Shown here: positions 3,895 through 63,993 of the stretch, piece by piece
Layout of the letters: each line of letters begins with the position of its first letter
Numbering within the stretch: position 1 is the first letter of the stretch
From: Stegostoma tigrinum
Lineage: Eukaryota
Length of the DNA: 64,000 nt
Assembly: GCF_030684315.1 (NCBI RefSeq)
Contig: NC_081383.1
Span: forward strand, 33,048,180-33,112,179
Reading direction: 5' to 3'
Translations under genes and position numbers: made by a program
Notes under the pieces: model-generated
Databases searched by the model: none
The model's input: the letters and a program-made list of their open reading frames with translations, nothing else
What the model was told of the DNA's origin: nothing

Positions 3895-3900
3895 TTTATT
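3895..3900 (-). terminator. Candidate YJU2 polyadenylation signal AATAAA
   Basis: tttatt on plus strand about 700 nt past the stop codon in an AT-rich context; no transcript evidence. Confidence 0.5.
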
Positions 3901-4604
3901 ATAGATTTAAAAAAATTTAATAGACAAAATTAAAAATTAATACGATATCTCAACAAAATGCACAGCAGGAGAAACTGCACAGTAGAGGTGAAATTCCACT
4001 TTCTTTGAAATGTAGAATGTCTGTCACCTGAAATTTGACATCGTTGGTGGATATTCCACAATGTCGGGGAAGAATGGAGACCACCCACCAGATTTAAAAT
4101 GAAACTAAAGTGAGGAGGTTTTTCAAGCAGGCATTGTACGTTCACCCTCCCTAACCTGTGGTATTAAGTCACAGAAGCAAAGATTCCAGGCATCATTTAC
4201 TATGACAGTGGGACTCTTGCTGAATTTATGAACAGGAGAGTGGCATTTCAGCAAGTATAATAACCGTACTGTGATCTGATGAACAGCCTTAGTTTGTGCT
4301 GGAATTTTTATAATGTGGGGCAAACAGTCATCTTAAGCGTATCCATGTTACATGCTTGTGGAAACCTGCTACGTGATTAAACAACAGAGAAGTGTAACGT
4401 TCTGTTAAATAAGGAGTATCAAAACTCATTTCATCAGAAATGACGTTGGGAAAAATATGGACATATTCCAAATGTCAAATCAAGGGACAAATCCCTCTTC
4501 CACAAATATTTACAGAAATACAGTAACAAAAAACATCATGGTATTACTTTGAATTATTCCTCTCTTGAAAGAGGTCTACTGCAGTCTGAAAAATTGCACA
4601 ATGG

Positions 4605-10700: not shown

Positions 10701-13700
10701 TTTCCTGGATGCCACAAACCAAAATGGGTAGAACGGCCTATGACAATGCAAGAAATCTATTTCTTAGTTTTCAAGCACTTGAAACGGAATCAGAATCATA
10801 CCTCATTGAGAATATCTGTCGGCCTCTGGGGGACTTGGGAATTCAGCTTACGAGGTTTAGGGAGTTCCTCATCAGAGTCCGAATCATCCAGAATTCTCTT
10901 CACCTGGGCACTTTCCAGCATTGTCCTTTTAGGATAGAAAGAGGCAAGATAAATCAACACAGAGAGCTGATTCCTGGCGTGTAAACTCTCTATATGGAAA
11001 CATGTTGATGCTTGACTGGGGAAAGAGAAAGAGTGCAGGAAGGGGAAGGGAAAGAGCGAGCGTGCAGGAAACAACATCTTTGAATGGATTCCAAACTTCA
11101 AGAAACCACATTGTGTCAAATCAGTGTATTTATGGAGAGGGCTCCCAAGCTCATTTTAAAAACTGTCCCATTGTTTATTTTGAGCTTCATTCCAATGCTG
11201 GTGAATGGTCTGACGAAAGCAGGGGCATACTGTGTCTGCAGCACTTCAGTTCTACTCGAGCCTACTGGTCACAGTGCATCAACGAAATAGTGGGACTGGA
11301 ACATGCAACATGCACAAACTAGCATGTGGAGCTTAGTGAATTGCACAGATGTGACAAATAAAAATTGCCAGATTTTCTAAATTAATAACCTCTACAAGAA
11401 TTTGTGCGCTTTATTTTGAGGTAACCAGAGAAAAAGCTAATAAATTATCTTTGAGAGAAAACAATGAATGTAACCCATTACTCTCCTCTATCTCACACCA
11501 AGGCATTAGTGCATCACAATACAATCATATCCAGACAGTGGGCAGGCTATTCCACTGTAAAGGGCATCACAGTTGAGCCCAGTCTCACCACTCTTCCTAA
11601 CTAAAGAAACTTCTGCATTGCGATTAGAATGGGCACTTTGATTTATTCAGTCAGAATCTCCAGTTCACCCTTAGGGCACCAACCCTAGATGGGATTGTCC
11701 TGGCACCATTCTAGCTGTGACCAACTAATTTAGCAGAAAGCTTTCCTCAGAATCCATTCTGCTCTTCAGCATCTTAATGCTGATGATCATCATTATAATG
11801 AATGGAACAATTCCGAATTTTGACAGCCAGACCTACTTCATTTCTCGCTCATCCTCCTCCTCCTGCTGTCGTTTCAGGTCTTTCTCATATTTCTGATACT
11901 CCAGTAACATACTCTCAAAGTCCACGTTGGCCTGTCGCTGATTCAACTCCTTCAGCTCCTGCAGGTTTTCCAACACCTCCATTTCCATTTTGGAGTCTTT
12001 AGTCCTGTTCTCTAAAACCTTTAAAAAGGATAAACACATGGCAGACCGCGAGTACTGAAATTACTCAGCCATAAGATCATAAGACATAGGAGTGGAAGTG
12101 AGACCATTCAGCCCATCGAGTCCACTCTACCATTTAAATCATGGCTGACGGGCATTTCAACTCCACTTCCCTGCACCGCCCCCGTAGCCCTTAATTCCTT
12201 GTGAGATCAAGAATTTATCAATCTCCGCCTTGAAGACATTTAACGTCCCGGCCTCCAATGCTCTCCATGGCAATGAATTCCACAGGCCCACCATTCTCTG
12301 GCTGAAGAAATGTCTCCTCATTTCCGTTTTAAATTTACCCCCTCTAATTCTAAGGCTGTGCCCAAGGGTCCTAGTCTCCCCGCCTAACGGAAACAACTTC
12401 CTAGCGTCCACCCTTTCTAAGCCATACATTATCTTGTAAGTTTCTATTAGATCTTCCCTCAGCCTTCTAAACTCTAATGAATACAATCCCAGGATCCTTA
12501 GCCGTTCAAAATACATTAAACCTACCATTCCAGGGATCATCCGTGTGAATCTCCGCTAGACACGCTCCAGTGCCAGTATGTCCTTCCTGAGGTGTGGGGC
12601 CCAAAATTGGACACAGTATTCTAAACGGGGCCTAACTAGGGCTTTATTAAGTCTCAAAAGCACATCACTGCTTTTATATTCCAACCCTCTTGAGATAAAC
12701 GACAAAAATTACATTCGATTTCTTAATCACAGACTCTACCCGCAAGTTAACTTTTAGAGAATCCTGGACCAGCACTCTCAGATCCCTTTGTACTTCTGCT
12801 TTACGAATTTTCTCATCATTTAGAAAATAGCCCATGCCTGTATTCTTTTTTCCAAACTGCAAAACCTCACATTTGCTCACGTTGAATTTCATCAGCCATT
12901 TCCTGGACCACTCTCCTAAACAGTCTAAATCTTTCTGCAGCTTCCCCACCTCCTCAGTACTACCTGCCTGTCCACCTATCTTCGTATCATCGGCAAACTT
13001 CGCCAGAAGCCCCCAGTCCCTTCATCCAGATCATTAATATATAAAGCGAACAGCTGCAGCCCCAACACTGAACCCTGTGGGACACCACTTGTCAACGATT
13101 GCCATTTCGAAAAAGAGCCTTTTATCCCAACTCTCTGCCTTCTGTCTGACAGCCAATCCTCAATCCAAGCCAGTAGCTCACCTCAGACACAATGGGCCCT
13201 CACCTTGCTCAGCAGCCTCCCGTGAGGCACCTTATCGAAGGCCATGTCGGCCATTAGTCTTCACGAGTAAATTTCTGATCAGCACATTGCACCTCCACAC
13301 TGAAATCTCCACCACTGTCATTTTCATTATTCTTTAAATCCTTTTTGCCATTAAAAATAAAACCATCATAGCGTGATTGCATTGTTTCAAGTTATGCTTG
13401 TAAATACTTGTATTTACAATATATTATGCTTGGAAAATTTTGACAAGGAGGTTTTACTAAGTGTCCAAACATCACACCACCTGATCCCCACAAGAGGGAG
13501 AAAGGAGCAGAACAATGTCTGAATGAGGTTAGATGAAGAGTGGCAGGAGGCCAGAGTGCAGCATAGACACTGGAATCGGCCAGTCAGCGCTTCACATAGT
13601 AAGTAATACCTTCATTGGGTTGTTCAGCTCTTCATCCTCCCGTTCTTTCTGCATTTGCTTCTCCTGCTCCTCCAGCAGCTTCTCTGCTTGGAAGTTTCGT

Positions 13701-32033: not shown

Positions 32034-32165
32034 NNNNNNNNNNNNNNNNNNNNNNNNNNNNNNNNNNNNNNNNNNNNNNNNNNNNNNNNNNNNNNNNNNN
32101 NNNNNNNNNNNNNNNNNNNNNNNNNNNNNNNNNNNNNNNNNNNNNNNNNNNNNNNNNNNNNNNNN
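32034..32165. other. Assembly gap (132 N)
   Basis: Run of n characters. Confidence 1.
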
Positions 32166-33644: not shown

Positions 33645-35786
33645 AGATAATGGGAACTGCAGATGCTGGAGAATCCAAGACAACAAAATGTGAGGCTGGA
33701 TGAACACAGCAGGCCAAGCAGCATCTCAGGAGCACAAAAGCTGATGTTTCAGGCCTAGACCCTTCATCAGAGAGGGGGATGGGGTGAGGGTTCTGGAATA
33801 AATAGGGAGAGAGGGGGAGGCGGACCGAAGATGGAGAGAAAAGAAGATAGGTGGAGACAGTATAGGTGGGGAGGTAGGGAGGGGATAGGTCAGTCCAGGG
33901 AAGACGGACAGGTCAAGGAGGTGGGATGAGGTTAGTAGGTAGGAGATGGGGGTGTGGCTTGGGGTGGGAGGAAGGGATGGGTGAGAGGAAGAACAGGTTA
34001 GGGAGGCAGAGACAGGTTGGATTGGTTTTGGGATGCAGTGGGTGGAGGGGAAGAGCTGGGCTGGTTGTGTGGTGCAGTGGGGGGAGGGGACGAACTGGGC
34101 TGGTTTAGGGATGCGGTGGGGGAAGGGGAGATTTTGAAGCTGCTGAAGTCCACATTGATACCATTAGGCTGCAGGGCTCCCAAGCGGAATATGAGTTGCT
34201 GTTCCTGCAACCTTCAGGTGGCATCATTGTGGCACTGCAGGAGGCCCATGATGGACATGTCACCCCACCTCTTCCTCCGGTACATTGATGACTGTATCGG
34301 CGCCACCTCTTGCTCCCCAGAGGAGCTCGAACAGTTCATCCACTTCACCAACACCTTCCACCCCAACCTTCAGTTCACCTGGGCCATCTCCAGCACATCC
34401 CTCACCTTCCTGGATCTCTCAGTCTCCATCTCAGGCAACCAGCTGGTAACCGATGTCCATTTCAAGCCCACCGACTCCCACAGCTACCTAGAATACACCT
34501 CCTCCCACCCACCCTCCTGCAAAAATTCCACCCCCTATTCCCAATTCCTCCGCCTCCGCCGCATCTGCTCCATGATAAGACATTCTACTCCCTCACATCC
34601 CAGATGTCCAAGTTCTTCAAGGACCGCAACTTTCCCCTCACAGTGATCGAGAACGCCCTTGACTGCGTCTCCCGTATTTCCGGCAGCACATCCCTCACAC
34701 CCTGTCCCCGCCACAACTGCCCTAAGAGGATCCCCCTCGTTCTCACACACCACCCCACCAACCTCCGGATACAACGCATCATCCTCCGACACTTCCGCCA
34801 TTTACAATCCGACCCCACCACCCAAGACATTTTTCCATCCCCACCCCTGTCTGCTTTCCGGAGAGACCACTCTCTCCGTGACTCCCTTGTTTGCTCCACA
34901 CTGCCCTCCAACCCCACCACACCCGGCACCTTCCCCTGCAACCGTAGGAAATGCTACACTTGCCCCCACACCTCTTCCCTCACCCCTATCCCAGGCCCCA
35001 AGATGATATTCCACATTAAGCAGAGGTTCACCTGCACATCTGCCAATGTGGTATACTGCATCCACTGTACCCGGTGTGGCTTCCTCTACATTGGGGAAAC
35101 CAAGTGGAGGCTAAGGGACCACTTTGCAGAACACCTCCGCTCGGTTCGCAACAAACAACTGCACCTCCCAGTCGCAAACCATTTCCACTCCCCCTCCCAT
35201 TCTCTTGATGACATGTCCATCATGGGCCTCCTGCAGTGCCACAATGAAGCCACCCGAAGGTTGCAGGAACAGCAACTCATATTCCGCCTGGGAACCCTGC
35301 AGCCTAATGGTATCAATGTGGACTTCACCAGTTTCAAAATCTCCCCTTCCCCTACTGCATCCCTAAACCAGCCCAGTTCGTCCCCTCCCCCCACTGCACC
35401 ACACAACCAGCCCAGCTCTTCCCCTCCACCCACTGCATCCCAAAACCAGTCCAACCTGTCTCTGCCTCCCTAACCGGTTCTTCCTCTCACCCATCCCTTC
35501 CTCCCACCCCAAGCCACACCCCCATCTCCTACCTACTAACCTCATCCCACCTCCTTGACCTGTCCGTCTTCCCTGGACTGACCTATCCCCTCCCTACCTC
35601 CCCACCTATACTCTCTCCACCTATCTTCTTTTCTCTCCATCTTCGGTCCGCCTCCCCCTCTCTCCCTATTTATTCCAGAACCCTCTCCCCATCCCCCTCT
35701 CTGATGAAGGGTCTAGGCCCGAAACGTCAGCTTTTGTGCTCCTGAGATGCTGCTGGGCCTGCTGTGTTCATCCAGCCCCACATTTT
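33645..35786 (+). mobile_element. Penelope-like retroelement (5'-truncated RT plus GIY-YIG endonuclease) with inverted 5' pseudo-LTR
   Basis: LRYIDDC RT motif, [27 protein letters not shown] motif (ORF 34310..35473); arms 33684-34262 and 35209-35787 inverted; TSD gctgtttatatcctg at 33630-33644 and 35787-35801. Confidence 0.93.
35701..35728 (+). ncRNA. Minimal hammerhead ribozyme motif in Penelope pseudo-LTR
   Basis: CTGATGA-a-GGGTC-ta-GGCCC-GAAAC-GTC; identical motif on the minus strand at about 51029-51057. Confidence 0.65.
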
Positions 35787-47475: not shown

Positions 47476-47598
47476 ATGATAATTTCCCTCTTTGTGATGT
47501 GGATCCTGAGTGTTATGTCCATGGCCTTGTCAAACTCGATCGTTGATGAGCAATGGAAAATTTGGAAGCAGGCATATGGAAAAAGCTACCGTGATGTG
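47476..47598 (+). CDS. Cathepsin first coding exon (signal peptide and start of propeptide)
   Basis: caccATG; [41 protein letters not shown]|gtaaga. Confidence 0.9.
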
Positions 47599-50500
47599 GT
47601 AAGAAATGTAGGCTGACACCCTAGGAGAGGGTTTAGGGGACATGACACTGTTTTGAAGAGGGCAGATTGAACTGTAACCCCACCTGTTTGTTAATGTTGC
47701 TCAGTCGGAACCAAAGAGCAGAGTTTCCACAAAGCGTCCTTCTGTGGTGACGCAGATATTTAATATCAGCCAATAACTTGGCAACTATTGGGCACTTCTT
47801 CCAAATTTATTAAACACAAATAATGATGTGTTTCTCTCGTTTCCCCCAAAGTAATATTGGAAAGATCAAAGCCGTTATCATTAATTCCATATTGAAAGGC
47901 CTGTTGTCTAGTTACCAATTACATTCTAGTTGTGTGGGGCAAGTGGACAGCTTATACCTCTGGAGAAATATTTCATCTCTAGATCCACTTCTGACCAGGT
48001 ATCTTCCCATGATTTCAGTCCTAAAACTGCCTATTTCCACCTCCCTGAAATCACTTGACTCTTCCTCGCCCTCACTGCATCTGCTGCTGAAATCCTCAAT
48101 CATAACTGTGTTACCTCAGGGCTTCACTGTATGCTTTCTTGCCAGCCTCTCGCATTTTATTGCCTATAAACTGTGGTTTATCAAAAATACTGCTGCTCAT
48201 GTCCTAACGTGTACTAGATTCCGGTCACCCACTGCTTCAATGCGTAAGGAACTATTTTGGCAATGCTTCAATTTTAAAGTTTTCACCCTTACTTTCAAAT
48301 CAATTCATGCATGGTCTTTCCCTATCTCTGTAGTCCCCATCAACTCCACACTGCCCTGAGAAATCTGCACTTATTCAGTTCTGGACTGTTGCACATTCCC
48401 AGTTTCAATTGATCCACTGTTAATGGCCATTTCTGAGCTTTAGAATTCCCTCCCTAAACTTTTGTCATTCCACCTCTCTTTTCTCCTTTTAAGATGTCCC
48501 TTACAACTTGGCCCTTTGACCTGGCTTGTGCTCCAATATTACTAAATGTTTCTCACTTTCAAAGATTGCCTTACAACACTCCTGTATTGTACGTTGGAAT
48601 AATATATAATGTTAAAGCAATTATTTGAATAGAAGTCATTGGTTCTTGTATTGGTCGAGAAGCAATAATTCTGGTATAGCAAATTTGACTGCCTTTGCAC
48701 TTCTCAAAAACCTACATTTAAACTTTACCAGGCAGTGTAAGGAAAATGGGGCTGTAATCTACAACAATGCAGCAGAGGAGGGCAGGAATGGGCATTCTGG
48801 GAACATCCTTGCTTTTATTTCTGTGGCTTAAAGTTCAAGGGAGCTCTGTTAGCTTTTGTGCGTGTGGTAAGCTCTCACACCACTACAGTGCATTTACATT
48901 GCCTGTTTATCTAACTCATAGAATCCCTACAGTTTGGAAACAGGCCATTTGAGTCCAACACCCTCTGAAGCGCATCTCACCCTATAACCCTACATTTCCT
49001 CATGGCTAACCCACCTAGCCTGTGTACTCCTGGACACTATGGCAATTTAGCATGGCCAATGCACCTAAACTACACATCTTTGGGCTATGGGAGGAACACC
49101 TTGCAGACACTGGGAGAACATATAAACTAGATGCAGACAGTTGCCTGATGTTGGGATTAAGCCCAGGTTCCTGGTATTATGAGGTAGCTGTGTTAACCAC
49201 TGACCCACCATGCTCCCATTAACTCCTGTAACTTCTTGGCTCATTGTTTGAATCCCATATTAAAATGAGCCAGGGCTGTTGTCTTACTGCCCTGTGGGTT
49301 ATAATCCTTTTTCCCAAAACCATGGCTTAAAACTTATTTGGTTTCCTCTTCTTTGCTCCTGATAGCTTGATGCCAGTTTTCGCTACTGTGGCTGACATCA
49401 AATATTGTCACGTCCCATTTGAACATTTAGCTGCCTTCACTCATTTGAAGAAACATCATGTGGAGATGCCAGTGTTGGACTGGAATGCGCAAAGTCAGAA
49501 ATCACATGACACCAGGTTGTAGTCCAACAAATTTATTTGAAATCGCAAACTTTCAAGTGCTGCTCCTTCATCAGGTGAAGCAGGTCACCTATCAAAGGAG
49601 CAGTGCTCCGAAAGCTTATGATTTCAAATAAATCTATTGGACTATAACCTGGTTTATTGTGAATTCTGACCTCGAAGAAACATGCCATTTACAGCTCCAC
49701 TAACTTCGTTACATGTTGTGCAATTGCTGATCTGTACATTGTATTACAGTAGCTCATTGTTTTTACAGGAAGAAGATCGAGCCAGGAGAGAAATTTGGCT
49801 GGAAAACTTGGAGAAGATTGCAGCTCACAATGCTCAATATCATCAAGGAAATTCCACTTATGAAATGGCCATGAATGAATTTGGAGACTTGGTGAGTGAG
49901 AAAAATTGTACAGTACCACACTTGCTGGTTTGGTACTATGGGTGATGAAGTATCAGTTGAGCCCAACTAAGCAAGCCTGATTTCCTGGGACAAGAATACA
50001 TCAGCTAGAATTATTGTTATCTCTGCTGGACGAGTTCTTATTTCCAACTATATAGCTAACGTACTGGGAGAAAAACATTGCCATGATTCTAACAGCACTA
50101 CATAGATGTTCAATGAGAGAGCCCATCAGAAAAACATAGACTAGGTAATGAACATGGCATCATCAACAATGCTCATATCTGAGAATAAATTTAACTTTTA
50201 ACTTAATTCCATTATTTTCCAGTTTAAATTAAGAAAGGCTTTAATGTTAACTATAACCTTATTTCTTTATTTTTCTATTTATTCTACAAAGGTAATGTGT
50301 AACTTTTTAACTCTGTTTCTCTTACTACTTTGTACCTAATTTTTGTAGCTCGGTACCTTTGTACTTAAGATGGTGCCTTGTGTGGAGACGTAATACACTT
50401 TTCACTGTCCTCCTGTACTTCTGCACTTAAGCACATGTGACACTAAAATCTTATTGTAAATGTAAATACAAATCTAAAATAAATTTCAGAAAAGGAAGAT

Positions 50501-53500
50501 GGGAATCTGGGAGAATCAGAAAAGACTTTGGTGGGTTTGAAAAACTAATATATCCCAAATAGCCCTCCTTTCAATCATCTATCTCATTGTCTCTTACACT
50601 CTTCTGCGTTACATTCCCCACTGACTCAGTGGGTAATCTACACCACACATTAATACCCTCTGTGTGAAATAATTAAAGCTAAAAGGACTCTGATTTCCAG
50701 TTTAAGCCCAGGTCTCTCGGCTTTGCAATCTGTGACAATCTCATGTATTATTGGGCTCAATTTATCTTCCTTTAGGATATAAAATATTTAAATAACATCC
50801 TCAGTGACACTTCTTTCCTTCAGATAATTTACCCACTTCTTAGAGCTTTAATGTTTGAATGTACTGAGCAGTTTGTTTTTCCTTTTCTGCAGTTTCCAAT
50901 GCCTTGTTACTCTTTCTGCAATATCGCAACCAGAATTGTATACCTCAACACATCTTCATTTACAAGATATTAAAATGTGAAGCTGGATGAAAACAACAGG
51001 CCAAGCAGCATCTCAGGAGCACAAAAGCTGACGTTTCGGGCCTAGACCCTTCATCAGAGAGGGGGATAGGGTGAGGGTTCTGGAATAAATAGGGAGAGAG
51101 GGGGAGGCGGACCGAAGATGGAGAGAAAAGAAGATAGGTGGAGAGGAGAGTATAAGTGGGGAGGTAGGGAGGGGATAGGTCAGTCCAGGGAAGACGGACA
51201 GGTCAAGGAGGTGGGATGAGGTTAGTAGGTAGGAAATGGAGGTGCGGCTTGGGGTGGGAGGAAGGGATGGGTGAGAGGAAGAACAGGTTAGGGAGGCAGA
51301 GGCAGGCTGGGCTAGTTTTGGGATGCAGCCGGGGGAGGGGAAGAGCTGGGCTGGTTTTGGGATGCGGTGGGGGAAGGGGAGATGTTGAAGCTGGTAAAGC
51401 CCGCATTGATACCATTGGGCTGCAGGGTTCCCAAGCGGAATATGAGTTGCTGTTCCTGCAACCTTCGGATGGCATCATTGCGGCACTGCAGGAGGCCCAT
51501 GATGGACATGTCATCTAAAAAGTGGGAGGGGGAGTTGAAATCGTTCGCGACTGGGAGGTGCAGTTGTTTATTGCGAACCGAGCGGAGGTGTTCTGAAAAG
51601 CGGTCCCTAAGCCTCCGCTTGGTTTCCCCAATGTAGAGGAAGCCACACCGGGTACAATGGATACAGTATACCACGTTGGAGATGTGCAGGTGAACCTCTG
51701 CTTAATATGGAAAGTCATCTTGGGGCCTGGGATAGGGGTGAGGGAGGAGGTGTGGGGGCAAGTGTAGCATTTCCTGCGGTTGCAGGGGAAGGTGCCGGGT
51801 GTGGTGGGGTTGGAAGGCAATGTGGAGCGAACAAGGGAGTCACTTAGAGAGTGGTCTCTCCGGAAAGCAGACAAGGGTGGGAATGGAAAAATGTCTTGGG
51901 TGGTGGGGTCGGATTGTAGATGGCGGAAGTGTTGGAGGATGATGCGTTGTATCCGGAGGTTGGTGGGGTGGTGTGTGAGAACGAGGGGGATCCTCTTTGG
52001 GTGGTTGTGGCGGGGGCGGGGTGTGAGGGATGTGTTGCGGGAAATGTGGGAGACGCGGTCAAGGGCGTTGTCGACCACTGTGGGGGGAAAGTTGCGGTCC
52101 TTGAAGAACTTGGACATCTGGGATGTGTGGGAGTGGAATGCCTCATCGTGGGAGCAGATGCGGCGGAGGCGGAGGAATTGGGAATAGGAGATGGAATTTT
52201 TGCAGGAGGGTGGGTGGGAGGAGGTGTATTCTAGGTAGCTGTGAGAGTTGGTGGGCTTGAAATGGACGTCAGTTACAACCTGGATGCCAGAGATGGAGAC
52301 TGAGAGGTCCAGGAAGGTGAGGTATCTGCTGGAGATGGCCCAGATGAACTGAAGGATGGGGTGGAAGGTGTTGGTGAAGTGGATGAACTGTTCGAGCTCC
52401 TCTGGGGAGCAAGAGGCGGCGCCGAAACAGTCATCAATGTATTGGAGGAAGAGGTGGGGTTTCTGGCCTGTGTAGGTGCGGCAGAGGGACTGTTCCACAT
52501 AACCTACAAAGACGCAGGTACAGCTGGGGCCCATGTGGGTGCCCATGGCCACCCCCTTTGTCTGTAGGAAGTGGGAACCCTCACCCCATCCCCCTCTCTG
52601 ATGTAGGGCCTAGGCCCGAAATGTCAGCTTTTGTGCTCCTGAGATGCTGCTTGGCCTGTTGTGTTCATCCAGCTTCACACTTTATTACCTTGGATTCTCC
52701 AGCATCTGCAGTTCCCATTATCACATCTTCATTTACAACCACTTTTCAATTTAGCTAATTACCAATTCACCTCAGAAGCTTGATTTTATTTGCTGCCTCC
52801 TTATTATGTATGTATTATAATACTGTATTGTGTGGCCTGTTATGAAAAATCTTGCTTAACATCAAAAAGAATTCACTTTCACTGAATGTATATTCACTTC
52901 CAGTGAAATCTCCAGGAATTTTAATAATTAAGAACATTGAACCCTAAATTGTCCAATAGCTCCCTCCTCATAATGATGCAGTTCTTTAATGATTTCTTTG
53001 GCTGGAATGTCTTTTAATGCTTTATCCAAAACCGATATAAGGTTCACAAGCTCATAGTTTCTGGGTCATCCCTATACACTTATGGAAAAATAATTGCTAT
53101 ATTAACAATACTCCAAATCCTCAGGAACCACTCCCATTTCTTTTTTGAAATTAAACAGATTTCACTCTCGACATTCATCCATCAAGCACACCATATTTTT
53201 CACTAACACTTTCAGTTTTTTGATCGCTGCCTTAACAAATACTTATTTTTCTGCTTAGAGCAAAAAAGAAACATTTTGATATATTTTGAATTTCTTGATT
53301 ACTTGATGTTGTGCCATGATGAGACTTTGATGGCACATTTCAGTGGCTTAACCGTTCCTTTCCTCGTCTCCCTGATTCAAATAGTTGATTTTTGTTGCAA
53401 TAGTTCCTGCGTCCAAACTCTATTTCCTATTTCAGCCCTTCTGAACAGTTTCCGATTTGCCATTATTTTGTTTTTAATTATGACTGATGTTGTCCAACAG

Positions 53501-54241
53501 CGCTTTACTTTCATGGGATGTGAATGTCACTGACAAGACAAGAATGAGCATATGATGTTCATTCTTAATTGCCCTGCATAAAATCTCATGTTTTACCCAT
53601 GTTCTATGGTTTGATACCATGAGTCTTGTGGCTCTGTATAATAGATGCTGCCTTGTCTCTTCTGGTAACTTGGGACCGGTAATGGTCTTCCCCTACATAT
53701 GACTGGCTACTGTTTGAGTATAAGTTTCTGCAAATTTTTGTCGACACCGTTGTGGATAACACTGTTCTCTGTAAGTTAACACAGACTATTCCGTTCCCTC
53801 TTCACAGTCTGTTACATTTGACTACTCTTATTACTGTTGGATGTTGATATACATCATTATCTTACATCAATTCCCATTATACCATAATCTCCACACTTTC
53901 TACATTTTCTCATTCATCCTCTTTTCCTTTTGATAGGTATCTTCCCTGTGTGTGCTATTTGAATCATGTTCTGCTTCCAGTGAATTTTACAGGCCACTCC
54001 AGACCACTTCTCATTTCTTCAAAATATGTTCTTCTTAGTCTAAGCGTTTCAATTGTATTCAGATGACATTCAGTCCTAAGCATAACCTTAAACTATATCA
54101 GAATGCTGCCACTTTTGCCACAGCATTCTTCAGCTGTTACAGGTCGAGGCTCACGATTCAGTACAACTCAGTATTCTTTTCATAGATTTTTTTGGACACT
54201 GCCACTGCACAACACCCCCCCACCCTCACACCCCCCCCCCC

Positions 54242-54329
<88 letters not shown>

Positions 54330-57300
54330 TCTGTGCGAAGCTCTGATGAAGATTCATTTCGACTTGAAATGTTAGCTTGCTCTCTCTCCGTGGATGCTGC
54401 TTGACCCACTATGATCTCTAGCATTTGTTATTTTCAGTACAGATTCAAGCATCTGCAGTAATTTGCTGCTACATGGAATTCTGTTAGCTTGGATGGCTGG
54501 TTTGCAATGAAGAGTGATGCCAACCATGCAGATTCAATTCCCATACTGTCTGAAGTCACCACTGAAGGCCTGCCTCCCTCATCTCGCCCCCTTACTTGAG
54601 ACAGTGTGACCCTCAGGTTAAACTCACTATTAGTAATCTCTTTCTAATGAAAGAACATGTTCATGGTACTCTGCAACTATGGCAACTACTGCATTCGAGC
54701 ATCTGCATGCTGCTCCCATTTATTCCGCTTGGTATTCCTACTAATTTGTTTAATTTCAAGGGATATTCCCGAAACGTCAGCTTTTGTGCTCCTGAGATGC
54801 TGCTTGGCCTGCTGTGTTCATCCAGCCTCACATTTTATTAACTCAAGGAAGTCTGTCCTATTTGTTTGGGTGGTCACTTTCTCTTGCAACTATTCTTGTA
54901 AGTTGCTCCTTCTGCCCCCTGTTGCAAGCATCATACAGTTCAATGTGCACTCTCAGGACAATGACACTGTTGACTGCAACATCTTAAATATTGGGTCAAA
55001 TCCATATCCTGCATTCCTGACTTACAAAGGCAATTTGATGTGCAGAATTCTGGACTCATCTTCAGCACCAGGTCAGTGAATGAGTTTTTCTTCCTGTAAC
55101 TATTTTTGTATTATCATTTTCAATGGGTGTGTGGGTTGATCCAGATGTGATGGAAGTGCAGTTGTTATTTTTAAGGGCTGTTAACTCAGCTCACTCGCAA
55201 AGACTGCCACTTAAAACTGGATGAACAAATATCTTTGTGTGGATTAATTGCACCAACTGTTTCTTGGTTAACACATTTGTGCCATCAGTCTGTGTTTGAT
55301 TAAGTTTGTTTCAGCTAACAACTGATTTTAGGTTCCGGTTAACAATTCCTGAAATATAACATTTGGCCAAATTTAATAACTGCCAATTTACAAGCTTTGT
55401 TCACAGCACAGTTACTTGGCTTTTTAATATTGTTTCACTTTCAGTTAAATGCATTTACAATGAAGAATTGGCGATACTGTGACCTTCATCTTGGTTATGT
55501 TAGAAAATCCAATCCAATAGTGCCTCTGATTGTGGGGATTTATTAGTTAACTGTCATAGAGTCATCGAGTAACATAGCACAGATACAGACCTTTTGGGCT
55601 AACCAGTCCATGCTAAATATAATTCCAAGCTAAACTAGTCCTACCTGCCTGTTCCTGGCCTATATCCCTCCAAACATTTCCTATTAATGTACTTATCCAA
55701 ATGTCTTTTAAGTGTAGTAATTGTATCCGCATCCACCACTTCCTCAGGAAGTTCACTCCTCACACGAACCACTTCTGTGTAATAAAATTTGCCACTCATG
55801 TCTTTTTTTAAATTTCTCTCCTCACACCTTAGAAATGCGCCTCCTGGTCTTGAAATGCCCCATCCTAGGGAAAAGGCAGCCACCATTAACTCTATCTGTA
55901 TCCCTCATTATCTTATAACATTCTACAAGGTCACCGCTTAACCTCCAACACTCCAGTGAAAAAAGCCCCAGCCTTTCTTTATTACTCGAACCTTCTGTGC
56001 CTGGCAACATCTTGGTAAATCTATTCTGCGCCCTCTCCACTTTGCTTAGAATCATGGTCTTATTTCAAAAGTATTTGTAAAGATTCATAATAAATTGAAA
56101 TAAAGTATCCATGATAGTTGTACCAATTCCTGTAATTGCTTCTTTGACTTCAAATTTCTTGATCTGATCTCCCTCTTTGACCTGTTGATCTACAACGGGC
56201 AATAGGAGTTAGTTTCCTTCTGCTCATGTCTGTTGTCTCCATCTACAAGGTTTCTGTATTTTTGGCATCTAGACGAACTCAAGATCTCCATCACTGTTAT
56301 CACCAATCAGAAAACATGGATGCAAATTGCAAGCATAATCCAAACACATGAAATTGAAACTTATTGTAAACCGATCGATTTTGATTTTGCATATTTTGCT
56401 GTTGTAGTGTCTTTGGAAGTAACATGCAACTCTCTCTTCCAGACGTCAACGGAGTTTGTAGAATTGTTCACTGATTCAGCAATGTATGAAATGGCAAATT
56501 ACACAGATGATGCACTATCAGATATTGAGCTGGAAGAACTGGAAGAAATAGAGGAAGTCAGCCGTATTCCCAAAGAAGTGGACTGGCGTCAAATGGGCTA
56601 TGTTAGGGATGTAAAGAACCAGGTACATGTTACCTTTTCATACTGACTGTTCACTCTGTGCTGGAAGGTTGTTTCTTGATTTTGATTTTATTGGGATTAC
56701 AAAATGATGCTTCTTTAATATTTTAACTCTAAGGAATGCTCATGAATGACTTATGGATACTTGAACATTTTTAACATTTGCAATCACCTCATGTTTGAGA
56801 AAAGTTAAAGCTAGACCAAATGGGCATCAGGAGGAATAATTCATGGTTGCTGTTTTTCCCCTAAATGCCAATAGGAGGAGGTGCTGAGAACAGAAGCAAA
56901 CAGGGTTAGCAGGGACTACTGATGCTGGAGTCTGAGCTAACAAGGTGTGGAGCTGGATAAACACAGCAGGCTAGGTAGCATCAGAGGAGCAGAAAAGCTG
57001 ATGTGTCGGGTCTGGACCCTCCTTCATAGAGGGAGGGGATGGGGAAGGGTGCTCTGAAATAAAGAGAGGGGAGGGGTGGTAATAGAAGGTGGATAATGGA
57101 GAGGATAGGTGGGAGAGAAGATAGACAGGTCAAGGAGGTGGGGCTGAAGTTAGTAAGTGAGTGAAGGTAGGAAGTGGGGGTGAGTGTTGGTCCGTGAGGT
57201 GGGAGGAGAAAGGTGGGAGAGAAGACGGATAAGTCAAGGAGGTGGGGATGAGATGGGGGGGCTGGTCTTGGGATGAGGTTGGTGGTTGTGGAGATTTTGA

Positions 57301-60300
57301 AGCTAGTAAAGTCCACATTGAGACCATTGGGTTGAGGGCTTTCAAGTGGAATATGAGGTGCTGTTTCTCCAGTTTCCAGTTGGCATCATTGTGACGCTGA
57401 AGGAGGCCTAGGATAGACGTGTTGTCCAGGGAGTGGGAGGGGGAGTTGAAGTGGTGTGGAACTGGGAGGTGTTGTTTGTTTGTCGCGAACCAAGCGTAGG
57501 TGCTCCACAAAGTAGTCTCTGAGCACCCGTTTGGTCTCCCTGATATAGAGGAGGGCTAATGTGTCCAATTCAGACAGACATCATGGGTGTACAGTCTAGT
57601 GCTAAAGTGGACTTGTGATAGAGTGGTAATGTCCAAAATTCTAGCCTAAAAAGTCCAGGATAAAGCCTCACCCGCCTTGGAAGTTTGCTATAACATGCCT
57701 GAACAGGTAGTTTACAAATAATTTGAGGGTCCTGTGGAGGAATGGTAGTGCCCCCAACTGTGGGCCAGTAAGTGCACATTCAAGTCCCATCTACTTCAGC
57801 GCTGGCATGACATATCTGGACAAGTTGATTAAAAATAATTACATGCACAGAACAGTGCTAAAGAGACCTGTTAGTGCAGCGACAATGTCCTTAACTCTGG
57901 GCTAAAAGGTTTGGATTCAAGTCAGGATAGTCTTGCAGGTTTGTCTCCTCACTTCAGAACAGTTGTTTAAAAAGATTTCCTTTCTGAAGAAATGCATCTT
58001 CATGTTCGATTTTTCATCTTTAACAAAACCACATATATACTCATGGTCCTGAATTAACGCTTTGAGTGCTTGGCAGATCAGCTATAGAGTCATAGAGTCA
58101 TACAGCGCAGAAACTGACATTTCATTCCAACCAGTCTATAATGACCATAATCCTAAAGTAAACTGGTCCCACCTGCCTGCGCTTGGCCCATATCCCTCTA
58201 AACATTTCTTATTCATGTACTTATCTAAATGTCTTTTAAATGTTTTAACTGTACATGCATCCACCGCTTCCTCAGGAATTTCATTCCTCACATGAATGCT
58301 TCTGTGTAATAAAGTTGCCCCTCATGTCTTATTCAAATCTTTCTCCTCTCACCTTAAAAATATGCCCTATGGTCAGGAAAGGAAATTAAAATGCACCAAA
58401 CTATTTTGCAAGTAAACTTCTAATGCTAAAAATAATGAAATCACTTTCTACAAAACAAATGATAGAGAGCTACCATGTTCTTTAACAAAGATGCAACCTC
58501 ATTTTTTTTACAGAGGATCAAAAGGACATTTTTATAATAAAAGGATTGGTTAGAATCCATTTGATTTTAAATAATTTAACCTATTTTTCCTAATCAACCT
58601 GTTCAGAGATGCTATTACACACCTTGTGGAAGAGATGGGACTTGGACCTGGGCATCCAGGTCCAGGGATATGGACAATGACATGAGGTTGATGTTAGCCT
58701 GCATCATCAATGTGCTAGTTAAGGCAGCCCTCACTTGGAGGGAGCCCTGACCTTGGGAACTGCCAGCCAATCAGATTGGATAGTGCTGGAACTGAAAGGA
58801 TGCCCACAAAGAAGTGTCATTCTTGCTGGACAGGCTGAGTCTGGCTTCTTGGGTGGGGAAGGACTGGGCACCAAGGGAGGAGGGCTAGGAGCTTGGGCTG
58901 TGGGGAAAGGGTTCATGGTGGGCCGGGAAGGCAGTAGGCATACTTCATGTAAACTTCTTCCGCACTTCCTCCAATGCATTTACAATCATAGAATCTCTGC
59001 AGTGAAGATACACGCCATTCAGTCTATTGAGCCTATGCTGACCTGTCGAAGAACACCCCCCTACACTATACCCACATTTAGCATGGCTAACCCACCCAGC
59101 CTGCACAATCCTGGACATTATAATAATTTCCCATGTCCAATCTTCCTAAACCTGCACATCTTTGGACTGTGGGAGGAAACCGGAGCACTCGGCGGAAACA
59201 CATGCAGACACAGAAAGGGTACACACATTCCACACAGGCAGTCCCCCAGGGCTGGATTCAAACCCAGGTCCTTGTTGGTGTGAGGCAGCAGTGCTAACTA
59301 TTGTGCCACTGTGCTGCCCTTCCTAAAGTGTGGTGCCCAAAAACTATACTCCAGTTGAACTTATATAAGTTCAGTAAAACTTGCCTGCTCGTGTACTTTA
59401 TGCCACTATAAATAATTCCAAAGGTTGTGTATGTTTTATCGCCAACTCTCACCAGATGCCCTTGGCCAACCTGCTTTCTGTTTCTCACTACAAACTCTAA
59501 TTCACTAGGTTTTTGATTCTTAAGCTATGCTGCCAGCCTGAAATAATGTTGCAAGGGACTGAAGTATTACCTTGTACCAAAAACAAAGTTGCTGATTCGC
59601 AGCATCTGCAGTTCTTTTGGTTTTTGTCATGTTGTACCATTCAGGCATCCGAAAGTGGAAGTGGTAAGGGCTGTAGTTAATCTGGAACTGAATATTTTGC
59701 GTAAATCCATTTCAGGCCCATTCGTGTCCATTGGCGATCATAGTCAAGGCAAAGGTGTAGCTAACTATTTGGACTCTCTATTAGCTTTCAATCAAAGTTC
59801 TGAAGCTCATGAAGAAAAGCTCTTAAATTTTTTCAAATTTGGCAATTTATCTTCTTCCCCTGCAGGGTTCATGTTTATCGTGCTATGCATTTGCTGCCGC
59901 TGGAGCTCTGGAAGGTCAGCTGGCCAAGAAAAGGAACCAGTATGTGGATCTGAGTGTGCAAAACATCATTGACTGTTCCAATGAGTTTAAGAATTATGGG
60001 TGCAATGGAGGTTTACCGTATCGTGCCTTTAAATACATTAAGAAATACGGCATTGAAACTGATCAGTCATACCCCTACCAAGCAAAGGTATAGTCTTCTG
60101 CTTGATCATTTCATACAGTAAAACTTGACTGTTCATTGTGAGGTCTGAAAGATAGTCTGGTTCAAGGAACTGCTTCATTTAACTTCTACAAATACTGACA
60201 TCACCTGGATCTGAGTACCTTCATGCAATGTGGCAAGTAAATGTCATTTTGATTATCAGTAGAAAAGATGTCCTTCATTCTGAAAGTGTGTCGTTGGATT

Positions 60301-63300
60301 AAGTCTGACCCTGTCCTTCCTGCTAGTCCATCCCCATTTTTGAATTATAGCACATTTGAAAGATGCTTGCATCAAATAGCTTGAAATGATCAATTAGGAA
60401 AAGTTAACCCCTTGAAGACATTGACCAATCGTGATAAACCTTAATGAATTGCGGCCTCCATGCAAACATATTTGAGTTTGATACTTCTCTTACACAATCC
60501 AGTAGAGATTGTCAATAGTGATCGGGGTGGAAGCACTTGACTAAATTTCCACTTTCTACAGATTGGGCATCTTCAGCACCTTCAGGCACTACCCTAGCTG
60601 AGATTAATTAACTCAACAAAGAGTAGAAATTAGCCTGTTAGTGAAAAAAAACAGTCACGGCAATTTTGGTGGTGGGAAGGTCGCTCGGTTATGTGTGACA
60701 ACACTCCGGGATAGAAGTAAGGAGAAATAAAGAAATAGAAGTTAGCCTGTGGCTTTCTGTCTGCTACCACAAAGATACTCAATGAATAAGCATTTCGAGT
60801 CGTTCAGCCGGTCAGAGTCACATCTTAACCAGAGTGTGACTTGACGTTTGGATGAGATAAGCTGTTGAAAAGGTGGTCTTAGTGTAGCTTTTGAAGTTGG
60901 AGGAACGGAGCAAAGTAAAGAGGTTTAGAAAGTGAAAGCAGAGGGGTTGAGTCCAAATGAGTACATCAGGGAAAGCTGTTTGGAAAGGGGTCAGGGATAC
61001 ACGAACACCGAGTGATGTGGGACGTGCTCAGAGGCAATGTAGGGCAGTAGGGCAGGGGTCTGATAGATGCATGGGATTTTGTGTGTGATACGATGTTGAC
61101 ATTTATGAAAATTATTGTCCGCCGATTTGCTAAACAGGCTCTCTTTCTCATTGCAGCGAAATGATCGGTGCTTTTTTAATAGCTTTAAGAGTGTCACCAC
61201 AATTAAAGAATTCAAAAGGATAAAGAACATTGGAGAGAAAAAATTAGCTGCATTAGTGGCACGTGTCGGACCAGTTTCTGTACTTGTTTATTCCTCACTT
61301 AATTCCTGGAGATTTTACAAGTCAGGTAAAGAAAATTCTGAAGTAGAACAAAGAACTGTGGAACTGAAAATCTGAAACAAAAACAAAACTTGCTGGAGAA
61401 CCTCAACAGGTCTGATAGCATCTGTGGAGAGAACGCAGAGTTAAAGTTTCGAGTTCGGTGACTCTTCTTCAGAACTGAATGGTTCAGAATCTACCTCTCA
61501 ATCTCACCGTGCATGATATCAACAGATTGGGAACAATGGGATTCACCTTCAGGGACAATTGGTAGACTAAATAGCTTTGTAATTGAATTCCTGAATACTT
61601 TCCCTTTACTACTTCTGTCTTTGGAAGTTTTGTTTTCAACTGAATTTTCTCTTTTGACTAGGCTAGCTACCTTCCCTAACTGCTTGGCGAAAGATGCTGT
61701 AAGCATGCAAAATCTTGTAGGTCTGCCTTTCCAATTTTGTTTAATATTGTACAGAATTGGAAAGGCAGACCTACATTTCAGAGTTGTTTTCATCTACAAT
61801 ACTTCTGTAGTAAATGAAACCAGGTGGACCTCACTGACTATGAGGTGCTTGATTGGGGTTGTTAACCTGGGCCAATCAGGAGTCCCTGACTGACCAATAT
61901 AACCAGGAGACGTACAAGCCTCTAAGGTCAGAGGGCTGACTCCAAGCTGGCTGCAGCTAATATGCTTTATAATAAAGTAAGCAAAGTGTGATTTGGTGAT
62001 ACAGACCTGTATGTAGTTATTTCAGCTACCCTCCATTTTGCAGGTATCTTTGATGATGTTGACTGCAATAAGAGAGTTGACCATGCAGTGGTCTTGGTTG
62101 GCTATGTGGGTGTATCTTCAAGAGGCTACTGGATCATTAAAAACAGGTAATAGCTACAAATTAAGAATATCAGGCAGAATGGAAACCTTTGTTATCCTAT
62201 GAATTATACAAAGTGGTGCTGGCACAGAAATAACTTAACAAATGGAAAAGCAAAGCATTAAAGAGCAGACACTTAAATGGGACCCCCTAAAGCATTTATG
62301 AGCATTTAAGTAAAGCTAATTTTATCAAAGAAATAAATGAACACAATGCAATCTTTCTGTTGATTTACTTATTTCCAATTGCCACCTTGTGGATAAACAT
62401 GGGATAGCTAAACTTGCCCCACTGGGTGTGAATTGTCATCATACAGCAGTCTCTCAACTGCCTGGCACTTGAGAGTAATTGTAAAAGTTCATTCTTTTAT
62501 CTGCAGTCACTTGGCCTCGTTTTTACTGAGTAGCAAGTGAAACATTTGTTTCCCTGCCTCAAATCAATTTCTCCCAGAAAAGATGAGATGAAAGCTGATT
62601 TTTTTTTGATGCTTTCCTTTACATGTATCCTGAGATTTGCTCTGCCCAGCTGTCAATTGCTTCCACCTTTTCTGAATGTATCATCTCACTTTTCAGATCC
62701 TGAAAGGCCGATGATGGCATTGTGGTATTGTTGCTAGACTATTAATCCAGAGACCCAGATAGCATTCTAGGAACCCAGGTTTAATCCCATCATTGGCAGA
62801 TGTTGGGATTTGAATTCAATCATATCTGGAAATAAAAGTCTAATGATTGTGAAACTGAGTGAAAATACCATCTGGTTCACTAATGTCCCTTTAAAGAAGG
62901 ATACTGTTGTCCTTACCCGGTCTGGCCTACATTATGAATCCAGATGCCCAACGGTGTGGTTGACTCTCAACTGCCTTCTGGGCAATTGGGAGTTAGCAAT
63001 AAATGCTGGTCTAGTCAGTGTCATCCACATCCTTTGAATGCATTAATTTTAAAAAACTGCATTTTAGATCTTCTACTGTATACTTTTTGACATGGATTCT
63101 TGCATGAAAATTATAAACTGCCATGTTTTACACTTAATTCCTCATTCAGTCAAAACTGACCTTTTGTGAAACAAGGGACACCATGGCACAGTGGGAATGT
63201 TTCTGCTCTAGTAAACCAGACCTCCAGGCTAATCTTTAGGCATACATTCAAATCCCACTATAAGAGCTGGTGGGCTTTTCAATCAATAATACATCTGAAA

Positions 63301-63993
63301 GTGAAGCTATTCTTGGTGATGGTGACCATGTCACCAGTTTTTAAGGGGCAGCCCCATTGTCAGTGGTTAACACTGCTGCCTCATAGTGCCAGGGGCCTGG
63401 GTTTGATTCCATCCTCAGGTGACTGTCTGTGTGAAGTTTGCATGTTCTCCCTGCATGTGCATGGGTTCACTAAGGTGCTCCAGTTTCCTCCCACAGTCCA
63501 AAGATGTGCAGGTTAGGTGAGTTAGCTTTGGGAAATCTCCAGTTAAAGGGAGAGTGCTAAGGGTTGAGTCGGGTTGAGTCTGGGTGAGATGCTCTTCAGG
63601 GGGTCAGTGTGAACTCAACAAGCCAAATGGCTTGTTTCCATACACAGCGATTCTAAGTATTGGCTCTTCTAACTATCCCAATTATTGGTCCAGATGAAAT
63701 TATAAATCACCAGAAGTAAATTCTTTACAGAATGAACCTGAGGCCCTGCTAATAACACTGGTTGAATTAAAACCAAAAACCCAAATGAAGAAATTTAAAA
63801 TATTATGGAACCAAACATACAAAAATCCTAATTGTATTAATTTTGGATATGATTAGTTTGGGTTTTGCATATTAACAAATGTTCTTGCTTTTCTAGCTGG
63901 GGAAAATCCTGGGGCGAGGAAGGATACATGCGCATGATTAAAGGCAAAAATATGTGTGGAATTAAATATTGTGTTTCCTATCCCACAATCTGA
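47476..63993 (+). CDS. Papain-family (C1A) preprocathepsin, cathepsin L/S/K-like, divergent; coding exons 47476-47598, 49769-49891, 56443-56622, 59866-60087, 61157-61325, 62044-62146, 63897-63993 (1017 nt, 338 aa)
   Basis: Signal peptide, I29 propeptide with ERWNIN and AxNxFxD motifs, mature start IPKEVDWR, catalytic Cys (59881-59883), His (62082-62084), Asn (62142-62144), oxyanion Gln (KNQ), GCNGG, KNSWG..WGEEGY. Open frame across GT-AG introns at the cathepsin L/S/K positions. Exact orthology not assignable by eye. Confidence 0.93.
47850..48620 (+). mobile_element. Decayed L2-like LINE 3' fragment
   Basis: ORF 47823..48359 remnants ([12 protein letters not shown]...L.W...FK) resembling the L2 ORF2 C-terminus. 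Confidence 0.5.
48917..49216 (-). mobile_element. HE1-type SINE
   Basis: Reverse complement of the 16727 family. Confidence 0.78.
49457..49673. mobile_element. Palindromic mini element (pseudo-LTR of the 22601 family)
   Basis: Inverted arms centred near 49583; TSD gaagaaacat at 49447-49456 and 49674-49683. Confidence 0.78.
49769..49891 (+). CDS. Cathepsin propeptide exon (ERWNIN)
   Basis: ttttacag|[41 protein letters not shown]|gtgagt. Confidence 0.94.
50966..52721 (-). mobile_element. Penelope-like retroelement in a cathepsin intron, same family as 33645-35786
   Basis: ORF 51515..52552 ([12 protein letters not shown]) and 51312..51674 (VYC..YIGET); inverted terminal piece about 52576-52721; TSD cacatcttcatttacaa at 50949-50965 and 52722-52738. 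Confidence 0.93.
54246..54324. repeat. (CA)n microsatellite, about 39 units
   Basis: Uninterrupted CA run preceded by poly-C. Confidence 0.98.
55553..56045 (-). mobile_element. CR1 3' fragment
   Basis: ORFs 55641..55886 and 55822..56055 ([17 protein letters not shown]). Confidence 0.85.
56443..56622 (+). CDS. Cathepsin exon: acidic propeptide linker and mature N-terminus
   Basis: ttccag|[60 protein letters not shown]|gtacat. Confidence 0.92.
56910..57556 (-). mobile_element. Penelope-like 3' fragment (GIY-YIG end and pseudo-LTR)
   Basis: [35 protein letters not shown] remnants; terminus related to 33645 family. Confidence 0.85.
58083..58370 (-). mobile_element. CR1 3' fragment
   Basis: catagagt terminal repeats and 3' UTR shared with 20424 and 55553 copies. 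Confidence 0.8.
58987..59319 (-). mobile_element. HE1-type SINE
   Basis: Reverse complement with tRNA head ending gtgctgccc at 59319. Confidence 0.82.
59866..60087 (+). CDS. Cathepsin exon with catalytic Cys
   Basis: ctgcag|[18 protein letters not shown]...[23 protein letters not shown]...YPYQAK|gtatag. Confidence 0.95.
61157..61325 (+). CDS. Cathepsin exon (GPVSV region)
   Basis: ttgcag|RNDRCFFN...[23 protein letters not shown](G)|gtaaag. Confidence 0.93.
62044..62146 (+). CDS. Cathepsin exon with catalytic His and Asn
   Basis: ttgcag|[34 protein letters not shown](S)|gtaata. Confidence 0.95.
62705..63041 (+). mobile_element. tRNA-derived SINE, family of 29362
   Basis: Colinear with 29362-29700. 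Confidence 0.82.
63345..63657 (+). mobile_element. HE1-type SINE
   Basis: cagtggttaacactgctgcctca head, gggtttgattcc B box, V-like core. Confidence 0.82.
63897..63993 (+). CDS. Cathepsin last coding exon
   Basis: ttctag|(S)[31 protein letters not shown] with TGA at 63991-63993. Confidence 0.95.

Follow-up and report, generated by a model that had tools for sequence, protein, structure and literature searches.

Cathepsin propeptides block the cleft of the enzyme and are removed at acid pH, a step aided by glycosaminoglycans (PMC4283429). Here we describe a cathepsin gene of the zebra shark, Stegostoma tigrinum, that lies in a 64,000-nucleotide (nt) stretch of contig NC_081383.1 (positions 33,048,180 to 33,112,179; hereafter the window). 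Judged by its sequence, the product is a cathepsin L-like member of family C1A, an unnamed elasmobranch variant. The first-pass annotation of the window had singled out the charge layout of the precursor, in which an acidic propeptide linker was proposed to mask a strongly cationic mature protease. In the present analysis a remodelled active-site cleft, together with a possible loss of the gene with matrotrophic live birth, appears to set the protein's clade apart more than the charge feature does.

The closest described systems are the human procathepsins L and K. With procathepsin L (PDB 1cs8, 7w33) and canonical vertebrate ctsla the zebra shark protein shares an I29 propeptide of the ERFNIN/GNFD type, the catalytic residues and three disulfides, and the exon layout of its gene resembles that of the genome's canonical cathepsin L gene, L043. 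It differs from procathepsin L in its linker, which is 11 amino acids (aa) longer and acidic (the human linker is about +2, hand count), and in the replacement of Gly23, Trp26, Ala133 and Gly167. Human procathepsin K (PDB 1by8, 7pck) shares the fold and domain order, with a template modelling (TM) score of 0.84-0.85 of the query and about 41% identity, and it too has a basic mature domain and a linker sequon. By hand count, however, cathepsin K has net charges of only about +7 (mature domain) and -1 (linker), versus +16 and -13 in the zebra shark protein, and it differs in S1 and S2 residues, in chondroitin-sulfate site 1 and in clade. A long acidic linker in exon 3 and a basic mature domain are likewise found in a hyper-cationic cluster of zebra shark cathepsins (XP_059494450 and copies), 3.6-6.8 megabases (Mb) away on the same contig; the cluster copies are more extreme (linker/mature charge -24/+36 to +40), tandemly amplified and in some cases catalytically dead, and the intact ones keep the canonical Gly23, Trp26 and Ala133. 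Among plant enzymes, papaya glycyl endopeptidase (proteinase IV) likewise has a bulky residue in place of Gly23, with a predicted narrowing of S1 (PMC13737867), but it carries Glu23 with Arg65 where the zebra shark protein pairs Leu23, which is Ser or Asn in certain relatives, with Gly65, and the plant lineage is distant. Finally, the zebrafish hatching gland makes a cathepsin L (PMC3098263), a precedent for a secreted cathepsin L in the hatching gland of a fish; no sequence identified as that enzyme stands in the trees presented here, and shark jelly and capsule are unlike the chorion of teleosts.

An elasmobranch clade with an altered cleft

The orthologues of the zebra shark protein that were found, with identities of about 54-92%, came only from sharks, skates and rays. 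On mature domains they form one clade (support 98 in a quick 97-row tree and 99/96 in a careful 38-row tree), which excludes cathepsins K, S and 12 as well as canonical L. The K clade (100/99) and the K+S clade (96/95) of the careful tree both exclude the zebra shark protein. The canonical cathepsin L of the zebra shark, L043, lies on another contig and groups at 100/98 with a ctsla-like protein, "ctsla" being our reading of an unnamed sequence in the tree. The sister of the clade is a divergent neighbour gene arranged tail-to-tail with the zebra shark gene (95/85, long branch). A chimaera protein, P0039 (-12/+23), was considered as an orthologue and set aside, its support being 91 in the quick tree and its position unplaced in the careful one. 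The hyper-cationic cluster and the orthologues occupy separate branches in both trees; a joint clade was not rejected by the approximately unbiased (AU) test (p 0.32), and an independent origin of the acidic cap is thus unsupported. The catshark has both an orthologue (P0035) and a cluster-type gene (P0186) with a long acidic linker and a basic mature domain. A literature search, whose coverage largely excluded subscription journals, returned no publication on this shark and ray clade.

Gly23 lines S1 and is conserved in the human cathepsins except W, and positions 133 and 205 shape S2 (PMC9712828). While Gln19, Cys25, His159 and Asn175 are present in the zebra shark protein and in 16/16 orthologues, every one of the 16 has Leu, Ser or Asn at position 23, as against Gly in 191 of the 215 other family members compared. 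Position 133 is Leu or Ile in 16/16 orthologues; among the others it is Leu in 6/215 and Ala or Gly in 177/215. Tyr occupies position 26 in 15 of 16 orthologues and in 24/215 others, and the clade further has Pro at 68, Val or Met at 167 and mostly Cys at 205. Because Gly23 is replaced throughout and Leu or Ile stands at 133, a narrowed cleft, and with it a narrowed specificity, is predicted for the shark clade. In papaya glycyl endopeptidase bulky residues at both 23 and 65 narrow S1 (PMC13737867); position 65 is Gly in 16/16 orthologues, so the glycyl-endopeptidase pair is not formed here. The clean orthologues also retain Gly66, along with Gly65 and all three disulfide pairs.

Over half of the mature domain's charge, +9 of +16, is encoded by exon 5 at columns conserved across orthologues, and this basic region overlaps the predicted second heparin site of cathepsin K (K10, K40, K41, R108, R111, R127, K214). 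Five of the seven residues of that site are basic in the zebra shark protein, with R127 varying among orthologues. In contrast, the crystallographic chondroitin-sulfate site of cathepsin K, Arg8-Lys9-Lys10, Asn190 and Lys191, reads R, Q, M, E, E (K9Q, K10M, N190E, K191E). Both cathepsin K sites were taken from PMC4283429. The earlier suggestion of a polyanion-binding, non-housekeeping enzyme thus stands in part: the predicted heparin site and the apparent dispensability of the gene in some lineages (below) speak for it, and the altered chondroitin-sulfate site speaks against it.

Gene models in egg-laying and live-bearing species

A complete mature domain was present in all nine egg-laying species, namely the zebra shark, two bamboo sharks, the horn shark, two catsharks and three skates, although one bamboo shark model lacked the first residues and one isoform skipped exon 3. 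That isoform, the bamboo shark X2 model (P0003), loses with the whole acidic exon Gln19 and the mature N terminus and is predicted to be inactive. Among live-bearers, models were broken or degenerate in 5/8 species. The normal last exon was absent from 4/4 white shark and 3/3 basking shark models; the devil ray model lacked exons 1-2 and Gln19 and carried G66C; the smooth-hound model was a fragment with G65S; and the sawfish model diverged after exon 4, which was itself well conserved. The sevengill shark and the sawshark had clean copies although they are live-bearing. The whale shark model contained a 24-aa insert, the start of which is matched by the translation of a cryptic intronic stretch of the zebra shark gene (Table 1); given this match and a change at only 1/74 invariant sites, the whale shark copy is unlikely to be broken.

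Substitutions were also counted at otherwise invariant sites of exons 4-6, each intact lineage being left out in turn. Intact lineages had 1-4 substitutions at 75-79 sites, as compared with 5-8 of 74 for the lamniform models covering exons 4-6, 9/74 for the devil ray and 8/69 for the smooth-hound. By Fisher's test, applied post hoc to gene models only, the difference between egg-layers and live-bearers gave p 0.009 by species (9/9 versus 3/8) and p 0.19 by lineage (4/4 versus 3/7). Lamniformes and Myliobatiformes are matrotrophic, their embryos being fed by histotrophy or oophagy (PMC10015161). Because it is apparently dispensable in some lineages, the gene looks unlike that of a housekeeping enzyme, and we think it probable that the product is a specialised, non-housekeeping protease. 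Neither the altered cleft nor the decay pattern among live-bearers had been picked up by the first-pass annotation.

The acidic linker and a family-wide charge rule

The charge counts of the first-pass annotation were exact. The 41-residue linker contains 4 D and 10 E with a single R (14 D/E and one basic residue; net -13), and the 215-aa mature domain, which begins at 56566, contains 22 K and 12 R (34 K/R) versus 10 D and 8 E (18 D/E; net +16), with an isoelectric point of 9.49. The exon concerned does encode 60 aa, being of 180 nt and in phase 0/0. That the corresponding cathepsin L exon is about 10 aa shorter is true of human procathepsin L (49 aa, hand count from the alignment) and of eight paralogues in the zebra shark genome (51-53 aa), but not of other paralogues, where it encodes 63-64 aa. 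The whole propeptide has a net charge of -17 and the full precursor -1, so that the pro-piece offsets the mature charge as in cationic granule proteins with an acidic pro-piece, such as pro-major basic protein and the alpha-defensins.

How unusual is this layout? A set of 251 proteins of 290-410 aa, made up of the best matches to the zebra shark protein and not of a curated family sample, was assembled; 231 were kept and 20 were dropped as having a missing or odd linker or mature part. Given the D/E frequency of 0.168 in 215 non-orthologous linkers, the probability of at least 14 D/E among 41 residues is 0.005. Equally acidic linkers were found in 5/215 proteins, all from the zebra shark paralogue cluster, and equally basic mature domains in 18/215. 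Linker and mature charges were anticorrelated across the 231 proteins (Spearman -0.69), and also among 94 representatives at 50% identity (-0.61) and among the 215 non-orthologues (-0.64). Independent contrasts on a FastTree tree gave r -0.43 to -0.59, with opposite signs in 129/208 contrasts. Because an independent-pairs test with 8 pairs gave no significance (median p 0.25), the charge rule rests on the rank correlation and the contrasts. A regression fitted without the orthologues predicts a mature charge of +16.7 for a linker of -13, close to the +16 seen in the zebra shark protein (residual standard deviation (SD) 7.4). The joint state of a linker of -7 or below with a mature domain of +10 or above occurs in 28/231 proteins and requires no fewer than 12 changes on the tree, some of them in characin fishes and an insect.

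The asymmetry is retained by all 15 clean orthologue proteins, with linkers of -8 to -13 and mature domains of +4 to +25. The first-pass annotation had proposed checking whether the two features occur together in a shark-specific clade; in the shark and ray clade they do, but the two charges are uncorrelated within it (rho 0.005, 11 species), and the rule is family-wide. Strict one-to-one masking among orthologues was therefore rejected. The horn shark protein, for example, is -11/+5, which is the level of an ordinary cathepsin K. Nor does splicing appear to remove the acidic stretch: in-frame candidate acceptors downstream have weaker pyrimidine tracts than the acceptor used, and the skate protein P0032, from a 1342-base contig short enough, we infer, to be a spliced transcript, carries the whole linker. 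Given the family-wide anticorrelation, the steady linker of the clade and the variable, uncorrelated mature charge, we regard the acidic cap as a conserved and fairly strong case of ordinary charge compensation and not as a new device. A special masking device, in the form first proposed, lacks support, since the cap follows the family-wide rule and the zebra shark's own genome holds more extreme paralogues. Our literature search found no publication that states the linker/mature anticorrelation, a weak sign that the rule has not been reported before.

Other proteins of the set show further charge patterns. The bamboo shark proteins P0149 and P0153-P0159 are amplified copies of the cluster type in which Ser takes the place of Cys25 and the region around His159 carries Asp or other replacements; they retain the acidic linker with a slightly acidic mature domain and are an exception to the charge rule. 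The characin proteins P0074, P0080, P0111, P0067 and P0047 belong to a separate tandem cathepsin L.1-like family, with linkers of -6 to -8 and mature domains of +16 to +28. The cathepsin 12 type (P0051, P0054, P0075, P0131 and kin) is a mirror image, with linkers of about +6 to +9 and mature domains of about -3 to -11.

The gene and its neighbours

The zebra shark gene consists of seven coding exons on the plus strand (window 47476-63993), all introns being GT-AG, and encodes a product of 338 aa (Table 1). It reaches beyond the span given in the first-pass annotation (56443..63993), which left out exons 1 and 2. The protein of the splice model, P0002, is a 100% match to XP_048415983, named procathepsin L-like (Stegostoma tigrinum). 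The gene is intact and single-copy in the zebra shark: depth was that of a single copy, and exons 3-7 showed no coding difference in DNA contigs from four runs, which represent at most two samples of one study. Assembly error and a pseudogene are ruled out by the intact seven-exon model together with the agreement of the DNA runs. The protein matches PF00112 (Peptidase_C1) with E 2.5e-71 and has a papain fold with an I29 propeptide. In exon 2 we take the motifs to be of the ERFNIN type (E43-R47-W51-N54-I58-N62) and the GNFD type (N77-F79-D81). The predicted structure is a standard procathepsin fold, with a mean predicted local distance difference test score (pLDDT) of 90.5 and TM 0.83-0.85 to procathepsins L and K; linker residues 101-120 are poorly defined (pLDDT about 55). 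The linker holds an N-glycosylation sequon, which is present in 14/15 orthologue proteins compared, and the zebra shark mature part has none.

Table 1. Positions, in window coordinates, of the parts of the cathepsin gene and of other features
Feature	Position	Strand	Remarks
Coding exon 1	47476..47598	+	start codon, hydrophobic signal-peptide-like N terminus (helix 2-18 in the predicted model), start of I29 propeptide
Coding exon 2	49769..49891	+	I29 inhibitor core; PF08246 E 3.2e-19
Coding exon 3, whole	56443..56622	+	AG/GT flanked
Exon 3, acidic linker part	56443..56565	+	41 aa, 14 D/E, 1 R, net -13
N-glycosylation sequon	56497..56505		in linker
Exon 3, mature-domain start	56566..56622	+	last codon is oxyanion-hole Gln19 (56620-56622)
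Coding exon 4	59866..60087	+	catalytic Cys25 (59881-59883); Gly23 to Leu (59875-59877); Trp26 to Tyr; Gly65/Gly66 retained; Leu67/Pro68
Coding exon 5	61157..61325	+	net +9, the larger part of the positive charge; basic patch conserved at mature 93-121; S2 residue Leu133 (61283-61285)
Cryptic AG/GT-flanked intronic stretch	61907..61976	+	70 nt; outside the gene model; inclusion would shift the frame; in or beside high-depth repeat bins
Coding exon 6	62044..62146	+	catalytic His159 (62082-62084) and Asn175 (62142-62144); Gly167 to Val
Coding exon 7	63897..63993	+	Trp177, third-disulfide Cys, Cys205 of the S2 pocket, stop codon
YJU2 (Saf4/Yju2) splicing-factor gene, exon	11836..12060	-	upstream neighbour; PF04502 E 5e-14
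Likely further YJU2-gene exons	near 10799..11155
Run of N	32034..32165		132 bases, outside the gene
GIY-YIG-containing stretch	51315..51701	-	probably Penelope-like retroelement remains; PF01541 E 5e-5
Similar retroelement text	33700..35500, 56900..57550		introns and upstream

The sister cathepsin lies just past the window, on the minus strand, at G000:C38:33116500-33121600 (L010, L023). Its linker is neutral (-1) and its mature part slightly acidic (-5); it has Ala23, Ala65 and Phe177 and lacks the third disulfide pair, and the catalytic Cys, His and Asn are retained. Its exons 1-2 were not found within 60 kb past the window. The genome carries 35 matches to exon 4. A cathepsin L-like cluster occupies 36.7-39.9 Mb of the same contig (G000:C38) and the small contigs C39 and C40 (L002-L007, L009, L011-L015, L017-L020, L031-L041, L044-L047). 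Diverse single genes at 36.7-38.0 Mb are followed there by near-identical tandem copies; some of these are hyper-cationic (-24/+36 to +40), some have Ser or Gly in place of Cys25 and some contain stops. L042 (G000:C28:40641000-40651000) is a cathepsin L.1-like gene with an extra intron within the catalytic-cysteine exon.

Discussion

The reading that we favour, with a probability of roughly 40%, is that the gene encodes a secreted, polyanion-binding protease of narrow specificity that would act at the egg stage, in opening jelly or capsule or on yolk. The egg stage is proposed because the decay pattern in live-bearers points there. The near-neutral precursor would travel the secretory route, and the linker sequon could receive a mannose-6-phosphate tag that leads to a secretory lysosome or granule. 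Acid or polyanion would then loosen the propeptide, as in other cathepsins; once free, the enzyme would attach to a polyanionic matrix by way of its exon 5 basic patch and would cleave bonds where small residues occupy P1 and P2. The likeliest job would be the loosening of egg jelly or capsule plugs, with the enzyme coming from the embryo's hatching gland, or possibly a role in the oviducal gland; yolk processing is a second option. Shark hatching-gland enzymes digest egg jelly and open slits (PMC6219803), and the gland appears at stage 27 (bioRxiv 10.64898/2026.04.27.721166). Astacin-type hatching candidates have been described for sharks without expression data (PMC8812170). A single-cell study of catshark embryos has a hatching-gland cluster (PMC13200729); the terms searched in it returned orthologue tables and no marker. 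Cathepsin is not mentioned in the accessible text of PMC10854053, and the catshark mucus cathepsin L of PMC10707392 has a different accession.

Several points weigh against an egg-stage role. The live-bearer evidence consists of automatic gene models with the genome DNA unseen, the link to eggs was drawn post hoc, and the association that reaches p 0.009 by species falls to p 0.19 by lineage. Three live-bearers, the sevengill shark, the sawshark and probably the whale shark, keep the gene. The sawfish break may be an assembly gap, exon 4 being well conserved, and broken models in general may merely reflect a lack of RNA support. The horn shark has a mature charge of merely +4/+5 though it lays eggs. 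No orthologue was named for the egg-laying epaulette shark among the homologue search matches; this species presumably has an annotated genome, and an orthologue was therefore expected. The reproductive modes assigned to most species are general background, the cited source covering Lamniformes and Myliobatiformes. Finally, catshark cathepsin L2 (ctsl2), which lies outside the L1, K and S clades and is abundant in blood-forming cells of the yolk sac (PMC8923501), could be this gene; the accessible text of that paper gives no accession for it.

In a bolder form of the egg-stage proposal, the clade would be the shark and skate hatching-gland protease by which jelly is dissolved and the egg case opened. 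This cationic cathepsin with a narrow cleft would have persisted through all of elasmobranch history, and mackerel sharks, devil rays and smooth-hounds would each have lost it separately once the feeding of embryos had moved inside the mother. On present sequence evidence we regard this form as rather unlikely.

The main alternative is a granule protease of granulocytes or blood-forming cells, an acid-capped cationic enzyme released against microbes or parasites. The first-pass annotation had put this idea first; we rate it as doubtful though a serious contender. The ctsl2 transcript reaches 3469-4497 transcripts per million (TPM) in the membrane of the yolk sac, and was located in haematopoietic cells (PMC8923501), but the catshark has a cluster-type gene (P0186) beside its orthologue, and ctsl2 may be of the cluster type. 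The charge layout resembles that of pro-major basic protein and the defensins. Against such a role, the zebra shark gene is single-copy, with 60-90% identity across sharks and skates, and the amplified, more extreme cluster would make the better granule candidate; moreover, one would not expect a leukocyte effector to show apparent decay in several live-bearers, unless the cluster takes over from the gene.

A cathepsin K-like remodeller of cartilage, skin or tooth matrix, working with glycosaminoglycan cofactors, seems improbable. Procathepsin K is the best sequence match among solved structures (E 9e-75) and the predicted second heparin site (PMC4283429) is largely basic here, but the protein falls outside K and S in the trees, the chondroitin-sulfate site known from crystallography is altered, and S2 (Leu67/Pro68/Leu133/Cys205) differs from that of cathepsin K. 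Cartilage, too, is common to all sharks, yet several models look decayed. An ordinary lysosomal endopeptidase, whose charges arose by drift, cap and enzyme compensating each other, and whose broken models are annotation errors, is equally hard to credit. The protein does sit on the family regression, and the widely conserved linker sequon is compatible with lysosomal sorting; in the zebra shark genome, however, another gene encodes the canonical cathepsin L, the whole clade is fixed for the cleft changes, and the radical substitutions of the devil ray and smooth-hound fall within true exons. That the protein is a weakly active or nearly inactive protease, serving mainly as a cationic binding protein or as a zymogen activator of one partner, is also improbable: S1 and S2 are crowded by the bulky side chains at positions 23 and 133, changes at 23/65 sharply cut the activity of papain and cathepsin B (PMC13737867), and the tail-to-tail sister gene lacks Trp177 and one disulfide pair, but clean orthologues retain the catalytic residues, Gly65, Gly66 and three disulfide pairs, and Tyr26 also occurs in other family members.

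For the family, the clade provides what appears to be a natural cathepsin with a remodelled S1/S2 cleft, and the linker/mature anticorrelation serves as a simple rule for predicting which acidic caps are unremarkable. If the egg-stage reading is true, the gene would be a specific candidate for the egg-case-opening enzyme of sharks, and its repeated loss would track matrotrophic live birth, much as hatching enzymes have been lost in live-bearing bony fishes (PMC8812170). Should the clade prove to be the hatching-gland protease itself, its loss would mark, at the molecular level, the transition from egg cases to live birth.

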